Positions 3,286-51,650 of a DNA stretch of 64,000 bases are shown piece after piece. Below the pieces are notes generated by a model that searched no databases, had not been told where the DNA came from, and saw only the letters and a list, made by a program, of their open reading frames with translations. Position 1 is the first letter of the stretch, and every line of letters begins with the position of its first letter. The DNA lies in IMG/VR virus record IMGVR_UViG_2778260994_000001, one strand, 5' to 3'. Origin of the DNA: a virus (taxonomy: Duplodnaviria > Heunggongvirae > Uroviricota > Caudoviricetes). A program made the translations under genes and the position numbers.

Positions 3286-3302
3286 CAATACATTAGAGCA
3301 AT
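3286..3302 (-). promoter_or_regulatory. C1-operator-like 17-mer (ATTGCTCTAATGTATTG, 14/17 to consensus)
   Basis: Minus-strand match to ATTGCTCTAATAAATTT, located between two minus-strand genes. Confidence 0.4.
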
Positions 3303-3303
3303 T

Positions 3304-4347
3304 TTATCTAACGCTCGACGAGTGACTTGTGATAGCGCCGACTCCAAGCGCGTAATCAAAGAACAATCGTTGATGCATCGCCAGCCTACCGTGCGTCTTC
3401 TCCCAATTATCGCGGTCACGCTCAATATCACGCTGGCATGACTGGCACAGAGGAATTGCGTAAATGTCATGCGCGCATAATCGACTATGACGAACGATAT
3501 AAGGCGTAATGTGAGCGCCAGCTCCCGCCGCTCCACACCCACAGCATGGACGGGAAGCAACAAAGTCCATGTACTCAGGTAATTTTAGCGATTGCAGTTT
3601 TGGTATTTTGAAATGCGCCATGCCAGGGTCGGAGTCAACATCCACAGAGCATACTTTTGCACGCATCGGCGCGGCGCGTTCTTCCATCATCTGAACATAT
3701 GCTGTAGCGCGATCGTCATACGGGCGAATATCTGCCTCTTTCAGAGGTCCGCTATCCTGCGTTGCGGCTTTCATCTTATTTATTGATATACGGCAAACTT
3801 CTTCCGGCATCAGGTGCATCATGTTGCGCATGAAAGCCCACCAGCACAGTTCCTGAATACTTAAATCATGGCCATCTGAAAGCCCCATTTCCTGACGGGC
3901 GACATCCAGTATCCAGTTAACGCGATTATTATGCAGCGTTTCTTTCAGCTCATTAAAACCACGCATCCGGTAATGGTTATCGTGATGCCAGCACAACAAC
4001 ACCGCGCTATTGTCTCGTTCAGCGTGGACAATATGGTTGTCACACCAACTACGATCTGCGGCCTGGCATTGACCCTCTTTCCTACGCAACCACGCCACCA
4101 GCGCGTCAATTCCACCAATACGGCGAAACAGTTCATCGCTGTTAAAAAACGGCTGCAACGCCTCATTTGTTGCCATAGTTTGCTCGGAAACAACGAGGCC
4201 GTCGTCCATGTGCTCGATTAACTCACGCGGCACCGGCTCCATAATAAATTTACGGCCAGCCTCCACCAGCTTTCTGACTTCCTGATCCACTTTGAATGTG
4301 GCGACGCCAAGCTCTTTTTGTACAAAGGGAGTAATTACGGCTTTCAC
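3304..4347 (-). CDS. Hypothetical Cys-rich protein (347 aa), possible zinc-binding/HNH-like C-terminus
   Basis: C-terminal CCGCG...CAHD...CQSCQ cysteine cluster; function not assignable from sequence. Confidence 0.6.
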
Positions 4348-4558
4348 ATCACACCTTTCATCACTGATTGGGCTTTATCTGCTGCCCGGCATTCTCTGTT
4401 TAAGCACAACCATTTCCTGACGGCATAACACAGCAATAGCGGTCCTGGCACCAATTTGCTTACCAACCAGGTATTGCTTTACCTCGCGGCGACTCACGCC
4501 ATCAAGAAGCATCTTTAACGCTCTACGGGACAATTTGTTGTATTTACGTGCCATTGAT

Positions 4559-4939
4559 CTACTCCGCAGAACCATACAATCTACGTAACGTGGCGGCGAC
4601 AGTAGATACAGATATCTCTCCGGTCGCAGCCCCTACGGTAAGGTCTACCAGTTCAGGGGAGTCAAATACCTGCACCCCGTTACGGCGTAGAAATAACAGC
4701 GCACTGTTTAGCGCGGTACGCTTATTGGCATCATTGAATATATGCCCTCTCGCTGTAGCCACCAGGTAGGTGGCGGAGACTTCGAAAAGGTCGGTGATCT
4801 CTTCGTAGGCAACTCTGGCCTGAACTCTCCCGATAATGGCCTCTGCCCTACCCGGATCTGACATTCCCGGCAGGCCGCCGTAGCGGTTTATATTCGCATC
4901 ATGAAGCGCAATAAGTTCTTCCGGTGATATATGCCTCAT
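4559..4939 (-). CDS. doc: Doc toxin (Fic-family death-on-curing protein)
   Basis: 126 aa [22 protein letters not shown]...; near-identical to P1 Doc as recalled; start overlaps phd stop. Confidence 0.95.
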
Positions 4940-5166
4940 TATCGGTTAACCAGTTCCTTGTTGGTGGAGTCCAGGGTGTCAAACAGGGATGCAAATTCAG
5001 CATCCAGCGCCGCTTTTTTGTAGGCTTCGAAAGTAGCCTTGCTGACAATTACTGCTGGCTCACGGCCTCTGCGGGTGATTTCAACCTCTTCCCCGGCTTC
5101 AACATTGTTGAGCACTTCAGAAAGGTTGCCGCGCGCGGTACGGAAGTTAATGGATCGCATAAACAC
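4939..5166 (-). CDS. phd: Phd antitoxin (start may be the third codon, giving 73 aa)
   Basis: ...[47 protein letters not shown]...; matches P1 Phd as recalled. Confidence 0.95.
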
Positions 5167-5232
5167 CTCGTGTACTCGTTATGTGTACACAATTATAAAC
5201 TTCACAGGCATAAAGCACCAGCACTTTGCAGC

Positions 5233-5622
5233 TTAAATCACCGGACAATCATCAAATTCCCCACTTCGGGCATCATTGATGACATGAGTGATCACACCAA
5301 AAACAGCATTACTGCCCGTGTATCCATCGTCATCTACTGGTAACGCCTCTTTCTTCCCGGTGCTTAAATCCTCCAGGTGCTGGCGCGGATACTTCCTGTA
5401 TCTCTTTATGCGATATTCACCCTCCATAGCGCACACAAGCAGAGAACCATCAACCGGAGTAAGCGAGGAATCAACCACCAGCAAAGCACCCTGCAATATT
5501 CCCTCACGGTGATGGCTATCAGCTGCCCGCATGAAGTAGGTTGCTGATGGATGCCTGATTAGTTGCTGATCAAGAGAAATTCGGCTTTCAACATAATCCG
5601 CCGCAGGAGAAGGGAAGCCCAT
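5233..5622 (-). CDS. humD: UmuD'-like SOS mutagenesis protein (S24 LexA-like peptidase fold)
   Basis: 129 aa, UmuD-like C-terminal domain; GAGGTG RBS 9 nt upstream; LexA box immediately upstream. Confidence 0.85.
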   Translation of the reverse strand: MGFPSPAADYVESRISLDQQLIRHPSATYFMRAADSHHREGILQGALLVVDSSLTPVDGSLLVCAMEGEYRIKRYRKYPRQHLEDLSTGKKEALPVDDDGYTGSNAVFGVITHVINDARSGEFDDCPVI

Positions 5623-5641
5623 AGCGTTTTCACCTCAATAA

Positions 5642-5661
5642 TACTGTTCATTTATACAGTA
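5642..5661. promoter_or_regulatory. LexA (SOS) box in the humD / 5797 divergent region
   Basis: TACTGTTCATTTATACAGTA fits CTGT-N8-ACAG with flanking TA/TA. Confidence 0.7.
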
Positions 5662-5796
5662 TACATTAAAGAGACACCTTTGGTGCAAACGCGTTACGTA
5701 CATCAACAACCGCTGATGATTTTGTGCGCTTTGCTACTATTCATCACCAACGGATCAGCGTAACCTCGTTGCCAATCAGTTAATAAGGAATTAGCT

Positions 5797-49965: not shown

Positions 49966-50010
49966 TTTTTCTGACCCGATCCAGATCGGGTTGGACGATC
50001 TGCTCAGAAA

Positions 50011-50037
50011 CCTGCCAGTTTGCTGGCAGGTTTTTTT
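50011..50037 (+). terminator. Plus-strand intrinsic terminator between ant and kilA (antisense to the operon)
   Basis: CCTGCCAG-tttg-CTGGCAGG followed by TTTTTTT. Confidence 0.6.
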
Positions 50038-50043
50038 CTTTTG

Positions 50044-51081
50044 TTAACCTATTGCTACTGGTTTTAACAAACCAGCATCAAGTAGCTTGCGAGTTAACCA
50101 CTGCTGGCCTTTACCCGTTAATTGGGGCGTCAGCCGTATCTGGTAGCCATTTTCATCATCCAGCACCACTTCTTTCACCGTGAAATACCCGGCGTTAATG
50201 TACTGCTGGCGCGGTACGTTTTTGCGCGCACCAAAAGCCATGAGAATGCCGTTCTGGCGCAACCATGAGAAAAGGGCGTTTTGCTTAAGTCCAACGACCT
50301 TTGCAAAGTTCCCGATCAGGATTCCATTAGCCGCTGATACCCGGTCGGCAAAATCGACTTTAGGGGCTGCGGCCACCAGCTGTTGTTCCAACTGCATTTT
50401 CTGTTCTGCCAACTCGGCAGCCAGGCGTAGAGCTTCTGGTAATGTTTGGGGGATCGATGGGGCAGGGGAGTTTGCCTGCTGCAATTCTTCCAGTTTGTCG
50501 ATCAGCGAACGGCGGACAGCTTTTGATTCGCGCGCGGCGACTCGCATGGCTTGTTTGAAAGTCATGGTTATGACAAGCATTGATGTTTTGTTCATTTTTT
50601 CCACTACACTTTTTGTGTAGTGCTCACCATCAAGCTCATCGAGTATTTTTTCTATGAATTTGTTGTTCCGAACCTCTGGTTCCCCACATAACTTACGCGC
50701 TTCATTGACCATCTTTAACAGTGTCAGGCTGTCGATTGTGTCTCCGGTGTTGGGGATGATATTCACGGCTGGTGCTGGCGTAGCTGACGTAACAGGTGCT
50801 GTTTTTTCAACATTCAAATTATTACCGGTCATTCTATGTGCCTCCTTTCTCATTTCTGCTGCCACTGTTGCGTAACGTAGACGTCCTTGTTCAATCAAAT
50901 AATCCCTGATCTCGGCTATCAGTAGCTTGTTGATCACAGCCTTATCTGTTCGGGTATAAAAACGTCTGGTTATCATGAAATAGTTGGCAATTGCGCCGGG
51001 GATCTCCCGTGTCGGCATACAGGCAGTGTGCAGGGCGATCGCTTCGGCTATGTCATTACGGGTGACGAGAGGTTTTTTCAT
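50044..51081 (-). CDS. ant: Antirepressor Ant-like protein (345 aa)
   Basis: C-terminal antirepressor domain shared with KilA; downstream of icd-like ORF and c4-like region. Confidence 0.8.
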   Translation of the reverse strand: MKKPLVTRNDIAEAIALHTACMPTREIPGAIANYFMITRRFYTRTDKAVINKLLIAEIRDYLIEQGRLRYATVAAEMRKEAHRMTGNNLNVEKTAPVTSATPAPAVNIIPNTGDTIDSLTLLKMVNEARKLCGEPEVRNNKFIEKILDELDGEHYTKSVVEKMNKTSMLVITMTFKQAMRVAARESKAVRRSLIDKLEELQQANSPAPSIPQTLPEALRLAAELAEQKMQLEQQLVAAAPKVDFADRVSAANGILIGNFAKVVGLKQNALFSWLRQNGILMAFGARKNVPRQQYINAGYFTVKEVVLDDENGYQIRLTPQLTGKGQQWLTRKLLDAGLLKPVAIG

Positions 51082-51299
51082 AAACCCCCCTGAACGTCGG
51101 CAGAGAAGGGGAGGCTCCAGTAACTAAGTGAATTGCGCGAGTTAGTTGAAAAACGGGCAGTAAAAATGCAGGGGCCGTCAGGCAATTGAGAGCGTGCTTC
51201 GTCTTCTGTTGCTGCGATAACGAAGTGATAGTGGTGTTTTTGGCAGGAGTAAAAGCGCCAGATAAATTCAGGATGAGTAGGGGTAGGGATAGTAGCCAC
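51078..51299 (-). CDS. icd: Icd-like small protein (73 aa, GTG start) translationally coupled to ant
   Basis: AGGAGG RBS 8 nt upstream of GTG; 4-nt overlap with ant start; length matches P1 Icd as recalled. Confidence 0.5.
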   Translation of the reverse strand: MATIPTPTHPEFIWRFYSCQKHHYHFVIAATEDEARSQLPDGPCIFTARFSTNSRNSLSYWSLPFSADVQGGL

Positions 51300-51483
51300 A
51301 ATGGCAGCCTCCTTTTGCTAATTTAAGGAGCTACCGCGTGAGGTTCCAATCTCAATGGCGGTAGCACTGACTGGGTTGGAACTACCGGCGCAAAAGGGAA
51401 CCGGCCTGCCTTTCGGCAGCCCAGCCAGCACTACCATTGATCTCGGAGCTATGTGCTACGTATGGCTGTGCGATGGCATGACA

Positions 51484-51508
51484 CAAAAAAAGACGCTTTT
51501 GGCGTCTG
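51484..51508 (-). terminator. Intrinsic terminator (minus-strand sense)
   Basis: Minus strand AGACGC-caaaa-GCGTCT followed by TTTTTTT. Confidence 0.5.
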
Positions 51509-51600
51509 TGTCGCCTTTTGCATTATCCGGGGTTCCAATCCCGGCATCCGTTTTACTAAGATGCCTGTTTAGGATAAACCGAAAATGCATTAGCACGCAA
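51484..51600 (-). ncRNA. c4: Candidate c4-like antisense regulatory RNA
   Basis: Stem-loop CCGGG-AUUGGAAC-CCCGG then intrinsic terminator; loop sequence has complementary GUUCCAAC / GGUUCC sites in the downstream icd leader (51370-51410). Confidence 0.4.
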
Positions 51601-51633
51601 GCAAGTTAATGTAGCATATGAAGCTAAAAAAAT

Positions 51634-51650
51634 AAAATAATTAGAGCAAC
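51634..51650 (-). promoter_or_regulatory. C1-operator-like 17-mer (GTTGCTCTAATTATTTT, 14/17) at the head of the immI-type operon
   Basis: Minus-strand match upstream of the c4-like RNA. Confidence 0.45.

Follow-up and report, generated by a model that had tools for sequence, protein, structure and literature searches.

Which DNA-binding protein, if any, reads a 17-bp motif that recurs between positions 3286 and 51650 of this tailed-phage DNA, and do its copies tie the adjoining operons into one immunity regulon? As judged from its sequence, the window (the whole stretch of 64,000 nucleotides that was analyzed) is a P1-like phage/plasmid prophage of Escherichia coli. It is collinear with phage P1 (AF234172.1) from position 93205 down to 36485, with 95 to 98% identity in the aligned segments, and contains four non-P1 stretches (8020-14540, 29073-30493, 47000-48190, and 51273-53855). 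The two best relatives are mosaics, each similar to different parts of the window, and the closest relatives show 99.4% identity to it over 2-27040 and 98.9% over 46900-54000. At its left end, the window begins with the pacB stop codon, and the repressor gene c1 lies immediately outside it; both closest relatives encode an intact C1 (WP_000611656.1) adjoining pacB, which is identical at 282 of 283 positions to the P1 reference protein, C1.100.

The initial annotation had listed nine sites matching at 14 of 17 positions or better and had equated the motif with the operator of the P1 repressor C1; the consensus that it used is the published one (PMC8546580). Scanning of the window with the consensus ATTGCTCTAATAAATTT at up to three mismatches, with 100 dinucleotide-preserving shuffles as the background, found all nine sites in place and yielded 10 matches in total against 0.29 ± 0.52 expected (shuffle maximum of 2, with none of the 100 shuffles reaching 10). 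The match is perfect at 31730 (minus strand), with one mismatch at 15414 and 35252 (both minus), two at 21180 (plus), 31719 (plus), and 49949 (minus), and three at 3286 (minus), 17507 (plus), 17556 (minus), and 51634 (minus). A position-weight-matrix scan against shuffled sequence and a comparison with the mapped P1 operators had been proposed as checks, and both bear the assignment out. An independent matrix, built from seven P1 operators beyond the part of P1 covered by the window, retrieved 10 sites above 14 bits against 0.54 expected (largest shuffle count, 3). The ten strong sites score 15.8 to 28.7 bits over two matrices (15.8 to 27.2 with the independent matrix and 18.6 to 28.7 with one from all operators), and a matrix check on the P1 genome recovered 19 of the 20 annotated operators above 12 bits, with 2 extra matches genome-wide. 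The exact 11-mer core ATTGCTCTAAT, which contains GC, occurs 7 times against 0.04 expected. In the four non-P1 stretches, a matrix scan for new operators found 51634 as the sole strong site; the weak matches at 10514, 47061, and 41461, the last within parS, are at chance level. The sequence shared among the sites ends at the 17 bp and a T-rich tail corresponding to the promoter spacer, and the flanks are unrelated; hence, we rejected a dispersed repeat or mobile element as their source.

Comparison with P1 showed that nine of the ten strong sites fall base for base on features annotated as "phage repressor C1 ... operator," eight of them with 17 of 17 identical positions in aligned flanks (Op94/lpa, Op88, Op86a, Op86b, Op82, Op72a, Op72b, and Op68) and one with 16 of 17. 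On the basis of their sequences and positions, we therefore regard the sites as very probably C1 operators of a P1-like plasmid prophage. Once the P1 gene coordinates are transferred to the window, the sites prove to be intergenic or at gene boundaries, as originally described: 3286 falls between pdcB and lpa, 15414 adjoins the stop codon of pap, and 31730 overlaps the last 10 nucleotides of dmt. The operators overlap or adjoin promoter hexamers that are unchanged with respect to P1 at the transferred coordinates, several of these promoters carrying only "predicted" status in the P1 record.

The leftmost of the unchanged operators, Olpa (Op94; 3286-3302, minus strand; P1 89904-89920), overlaps with its 3' end the -35 element of Plpa (3283-3288), whose hexamers are retained. 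It had been placed ahead of the pac-proximal genes, but it belongs to lpa (gene 10; 2763-3215, minus strand), which encodes the late-promoter activator, and the pac genes have a late promoter of their own, LPpac. OpmgT (Op88; 15414-15430, minus strand; P1 84293-84309) provides in its nucleotides 2 to 7, TTGCTC, the -35 element of P2pmgT, and the promoters there are retained; the pmgT operon that it heads includes the 6.5-kb non-P1 gene block at 8020-14540 as a co-oriented string of open reading frames. OpmgRa (Op86a; 17556-17572, minus strand; P1 82152-82168) contains the -35 element TTGCTC of PpmgR (17566-17571), and its inverted partner OpmgRb (Op86b; 17507-17523, plus strand; P1 82201-82217) lies 49 bp away, between PpmgR and pmgR. 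O26 (Op82; 21180-21196, plus strand; P1 78528-78544) is located in the divergent gene 26/pmgL region, in partial agreement with its earlier attribution to the baseplate operon, but what it overlaps are the sigma-70 promoters of pmgL (the -35 of P1pmgL and the -10 of P2pmgL), gene 26 being read from LP26. Obana (Op72a; 31730-31746, minus strand; P1 68667-68683), which had been singled out as the perfect site, indeed has no mismatch to the consensus but is only one half of a bivalent ban operator; the other half, Obanb (Op72b; 31719-31735, plus strand; P1 68678-68694), is inverted and overlaps it by 6 bp. Obana contains the -35 of P1ban (31740-31745) and the -10 of P2ban, and the unit controlled is the tRNA/SPFH gene/ban operon. 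Finally, Odmt (Op68; 35252-35268, minus strand; P1 65145-65161), the operator of uhr-hrdC-dmt, abuts the -35 of Pdmt (35247-35252).

Three operators have changed from their P1 counterparts. OrepL (Op53; 49949-49965, minus strand; 16 of 17 positions identical to P1 49810-49826) overlaps the -10 element (49955-49960) of PkilA/P53, the promoter of the kilA-repL lytic replicon, and carries a G4A substitution absent from the three relatives compared (P1, mip270_05, and pEC13-3), with pEC13-3 having the canonical G. The homologue of Oppp (Op83; 20273-20289, plus strand; TATGTACTAATTAATTT) matches P1 79435-79451 at 15 of 17 positions and scores 12.5 bits versus 20.9 in P1, with a T at the otherwise invariant C5 and one further change, which suggests that it is probably weakened. 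Of Orlf (Op55; 48184-48200, minus strand), read directly from the sequence at a homology breakpoint as ATTGCTCTAAT/CTGGAG, the 11-nucleotide core is kept, while the 3' part has been swapped at the junction with a non-P1 hok/sok block; the remnant is identical in pEC13-3. From these sequences, the Op53 G4A site, the Op83 C5T variant, and the Op55 remnant may bind C1 weakly or not at all. All nine sites of the initial annotation are real, but its list overlooked Op72b (31719), the degenerate Op83 (20273), and the truncated Op55 (48184).

The remaining strong site, GTTGCTCTAATTATTTT at 51634-51650 (minus strand), lies in an immI variant unlike that of either P1 or P7. Its synteny with the C4 RNA and its alignment to both phages identify it as the equivalent of Oc4 (Op51): it precedes the c4-icd-ant operon, 193 nucleotides upstream of the C4 RNA versus 187 in P1, and stays conserved although the leader around it has diverged. 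The first product of this operon is the C4 antisense RNA (51354-51441, minus strand; Rfam RF01695, 76.7 bits); downstream of c4 and icd lies ant1/ant2 (50044-51081, minus strand), which maps to P1 ant1 and encodes the antirepressor, an antagonist of C1, with a Pfam ANT KilAC domain (E = 5e-31). The retention of such a site in an otherwise diverged leader argues for selection. Against the operator assignment stand its three mismatches to the consensus and its novel immI context.

These arrangements suggest a mechanism in which, in the lysogen, C1, encoded immediately to the left of the window, would bind each asymmetric 17-bp site. In several cases, the TTGCTC of the operator doubles as a -35 element or its TCTAAT as a -10 element, and since the sites overlap or abut sigma-70 promoters, bound C1 would block RNA polymerase there. 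The units predicted to be silenced, early and lytic ones at scattered loci, are lpa, the pmgT and pmgR operons, pmgL, the tRNA/ban helicase operon, uhr-hrdC-dmt, the kilA-repL lytic replicon, and the c4-icd-ant immunity I operon. Inactivation of C1 via Coi or Ant would release all of them simultaneously, with the late genes following via Lpa. The sequence itself shows that the sites are present in excess of chance, that they are orthologous to annotated P1 operators, and that the promoter hexamers are retained; that C1 binds and represses in this element we infer from P1 experiments with identical sequences and from the near-identical C1 of the closest relatives. [quoted passage not shown] 1987; both via PMC9948254). 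Likewise, ban, dmt, and kilA are C1 controlled and are induced upon the temperature-shift lytic trigger in a P1 c1.100 lysogen (PMC4713147).

The sites recur ahead of several operons, some beside morphogenetic genes, and the initial annotation had considered late-promoter elements before rightly dropping the idea. The Lpa-dependent late promoters of P1 consist of a conserved 9-bp -22 box and a -10 element, and the transferred elements, LPpac at 2713-2731 (ATGTGACTT/TACCCT) and LP26/LPpmgL at 21211-21239 (TAGTCATTT), the latter with a -22/-10 pair at 21221-21239, lie at other coordinates with sequence unrelated to the 17-mer. The 17-mers lack the -22/-10 arrangement and fit the C1 operator annotation instead; hence, we rejected this reading, to which we attach a negligible probability. 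It is also exceedingly improbable that the sites are a product of composition, i.e., AT-rich promoter-like sequence that recurs between genes and is recognized by no particular protein. The 3' half of the motif is indeed AT rich, single exact 15-mer matches are present in unrelated AT-rich viral contigs, and the weak matches at 41461 and 47061 are no better than random, but no shuffle reaches the observed count, the GC-containing core is far in excess of expectation, and multisite clusters are confined to P1-family contigs among the viral contigs searched.

A different kind of doubt concerns function: if c1 had been lost or the repressor had changed, the operators could be relics kept by descent in a regulon that no longer works. 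The position of c1 beyond the window, the decay at Op83, Op55, and Op53, and the swapped immI region are compatible with such a history, which we nevertheless consider quite unlikely, given that eight operators and their promoters are perfectly kept against 95 to 98% identity in the aligned segments, that C1 is intact in both closest relatives, and that the Op51-type site persists in its diverged leader. The P1-like loci in IMG/VR, picked by exact operator match, are 92 to 99% identical near the operators, and footprinting among them is weakly informative.

As C1 operators, the sites share with P1 the asymmetric 17-bp consensus, the orthologous positions, the promoter overlaps, the bivalent Op72a/b, and the Op86a/b pair. 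The operators annotated in P1 (AF234172.1) are Op2a/b, 21, 51, 53, 55, 68, 72a/b, 82, 83, 86a/b, 88, 94, and 99a-e, with Op99a-e, Op2a/b, and Op21 lying beyond the window. Unlike P1, the window has the G4A change in Op53, two changes in Op83, only the core of Op55, GTTGCTCTAATTATTTT in a different immI leader, and different accessory genes in the Op88 and Op72 operons. In P7 (AF503408.1), Op(c4), Op(rep), and Op(rap) are likewise annotated as operators of "phage repressor C1," and they occupy the corresponding positions around c4, at kilA-repL, and downstream of repL; however, P7 retains rapA/B after Op(rap), where the window has hok/sok, and in the c4 leader P1 and P7 are much closer to each other than to the window. 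Like the lambda CI/OR-OL system, that of P1 relies on a prophage repressor that blocks early promoters by occlusion and is opposed by functions of the antirepressor type, but the lambda operators are symmetric, dimer bound, and clustered at two loci, whereas those of the P1 type are asymmetric single sites spread across the entire genome. P1 C1 binds as a monomer, with Lxc as a corepressor.

Mapping of the dispersed regulon of C1 operators in P1 dates back to the late 1980s, and the reference genome has it annotated. The multi-operon immunity regulon put forward in the initial annotation is thus this long-known set, and the motif finding is correct yet ordinary, because the motif represents long-known binding sites of the P1 immunity repressor. 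Small in importance as a discovery, it is of value as annotation: it provides exact coordinates for 12 operator positions, indicates that a P1-like E. coli plasmid prophage keeps P1-type immunity wiring, and flags the sites that differ from P1 together with the accessory genes whose control by the repressor is predicted. Its relevance lies in the fact that P1-like phage-plasmids commonly carry accessory genes in Enterobacteriaceae. What mild novelty there is lies in lineage-specific change, namely, the operator variants and the accessory genes inside C1-controlled operons. Behind Op88 is the 6.5-kb block of lambdoid ea-type genes and behind Op72, within the ban operon, an SPFH/Band-7 gene (29092-29919); having no operators of their own, such cargo genes in C1-controlled operons would stay off in a lysogen and be coinduced with lytic growth. 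That the regulon as a whole has been rewired relative to P1, with cargo placed in C1 operons, operators lost or weakened, and the Op55 core serving as an exchange junction, is a tentative and rather doubtful proposal. The break at Op55 falls exactly after the 11-nucleotide operator core, a hint from sequence that operator cores can act as module-exchange junctions.

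Across its whole length, blastn aligns the window collinearly and in reverse orientation with P1 (AF234172.1; from 93205, the pacB stop, to 36485) at 95-98% identity, with four stretches lacking a P1 counterpart (8020-14540, ~29073-30493, 47000-48190 and 51273-53855). The window therefore covers roughly two thirds of a phage/plasmid prophage of P1-like type. P1-family phages match a 6-kb window probe at 96-97.5% identity, and E. coli commonly carries closely related IncY plasmid prophages.

The initial annotation had read nine dispersed 17-bp sites as operators of the P1 immunity repressor C1. 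A consensus scan recovered all nine with zero to three mismatches, together with a tenth match at 31719(+) overlapping the perfect site at 31730 (10 matches versus 0.29 expected; 0/100 shuffles reach 10). The consensus given there is the published one, and P1 is stated to have 22 such dispersed operators (PMC8546580). A weight matrix derived, to avoid circularity, from seven annotated P1 operators outside the region homologous to the window likewise returned 10 sites above 14 bits versus 0.54 expected from shuffled sequence; applied to P1 the matrix gives 21 sites, of which 19 are annotated, and in a related plasmid it gives 23. The window has 7 copies of the GC-containing core ATTGCTCTAAT versus 0.04 expected. 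A repeat element was considered and rejected because the flanks are unrelated and the information content is limited to the 17 bp and a T-rich tail. This tail, TnTTTTTA at +18 to +27 on the 3' side of operators co-oriented with their promoter and often followed by AAAC, resembles a shared arrangement of spacer and -10 added to the TTGCTC -35 of the operator. Among viral contigs scanned for the 15-nt core, multi-site clusters are confined to P1-family DNA, and the unrelated contigs are AT-rich with single chance matches each.

Local alignments with 60-nt flanks to the operators annotated as "phage repressor C1" in the P1 record placed eight of the nine sites, and the overlapping one, on known counterparts. 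Identity is 17/17 for Olpa/Op94 (3286, -), OpmgT/Op88 (15414, -), OpmgRb/Op86b (17507, +), OpmgRa/Op86a (17556, -), O26/Op82 (21180, +), Obanb/Op72b (31719, +), Obana/Op72a (31730, -) and Odmt/Op68 (35252, -), and 16/17 for OrepL/Op53 (49949, -), whose G4A change is in none of the three relatives compared (P1, mip270_05 and pEC13-3). The C1 operator interpretation is supported; the set is the classical, already known P1 regulon, and what is new is modest and limited to its lineage-specific variation.

With P1 promoter annotation transferred to the window, all promoter hexamers adjoining or within operators are unchanged. Olpa overlaps at its end with the Plpa -35, the operator's own TTGCTC serves as the -35 of P2pmgT, PpmgR and P1ban, Odmt lies directly against the Pdmt -35, and OrepL contains the PkilA/P53 -10 (TCTAAT); most operators share the orientation of the unit controlled. 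We infer that C1 binds the sites of this element; under the established model, which this layout fits, bound C1 would occlude the promoter at the operator, as described for Op53/P53 (PMC9948254). In a P1 c1.100 lysogen whose lytic cycle is triggered by a temperature shift, the C1-controlled genes ban, dmt and kilA are reported to be induced (PMC4713147).

Three operator positions were absent from the initial list. Op72b pairs with the perfect site at 31730, so that the two form a bivalent operator. The Op83 homologue (20273-20289, +; TATGTACTAATTAATTT) scores 12.5 bits versus 20.9 in P1, with T at the otherwise invariant C5, a variant also present in one viral contig. An Op55 remnant lies at 48184-48200 (-), where P1 homology ends exactly after the 11-nt core ATTGCTCTAAT; the same junction is found in pEC13-3. 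Weaker matches at 41461-41477 (+), inside parS, and 47061-47077 (+), which precedes the 47093 ORF by 16 nt and has T at the invariant C5, score 10.5-13.4 bits, a level reached by shuffles.

The site at 51634 lies in DNA not alignable to P1, within an immunity I region (51273-53855) of a third type, unlike those of P1 and P7. In a three-way alignment with both, it stands out as a block of identity (TGCTCTAAT.A.TTT) within a leader that has otherwise diverged. On the same strand, Rfam places a C4 antisense RNA (51354-51441, -) 193 nt downstream of it; the corresponding Oc4-c4 distance in P1 is 187 nt. The RNA is preceded by an isrK-like element (51486-51564, -; RF01394). Three plus-strand ORFs (51797-52147, 52170-52646 and 52688-53755, the third of which has an SH3_3 domain) replace the sim genes.

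Other differences from P1 concern accessory genes. A 6.5-kb insertion inside the pmgT region (8020-14540), common to plasmid NZ_JBSQHB010000005.1 at 99.4% identity, places in the Op88 operon a tight string of co-oriented ORFs on the minus strand. These are of lambdoid early-accessory type (two resemble Ead/Ea22, one is a DUF551 gene and several have no family), and the matrix scan found no operator of their own among them. In the ban operon, an SPFH/Band-7 gene (29092-29919, -; Pfam E=1e-30) lies between tRNA genes, where P1 has tciABC (tciA-tciC), upl and plp. A 1.2-kb block (47000-48200), its right junction exactly after the Op55 core, replaces rlfA, rlfB and pmgF with a 210-aa ORF (47093-47725, +) that matches no Pfam family, along with a hok/sok toxin-antitoxin module (sok, 47721-47895, -, by Rfam; a Hok-size ORF, 47562-47723, -).

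The window starts at the pacB stop, and c1 lies outside it. Plasmid pEC13-3 is 98.9% identical over 46900-54000, with the hok/sok and immunity I arrangement in common, and NZ_JBSQHB010000005.1 matches positions 2-27040, the 6.5-kb insertion included, at 99.4% identity. Both encode beside pacB one identical C1, matching P1 C1.100 at 282/283 residues. Unlike P1, the closest relatives have a second icd/antirepressor module between c1 and pacB, which carries an operator-like site of its own, TTTGCTCTAATAAATTG. It falls immediately left of window base 1, 5-21 nt past the point that corresponds to the first bases of the window (relative L127 29616-29632; L126 3961-5435).
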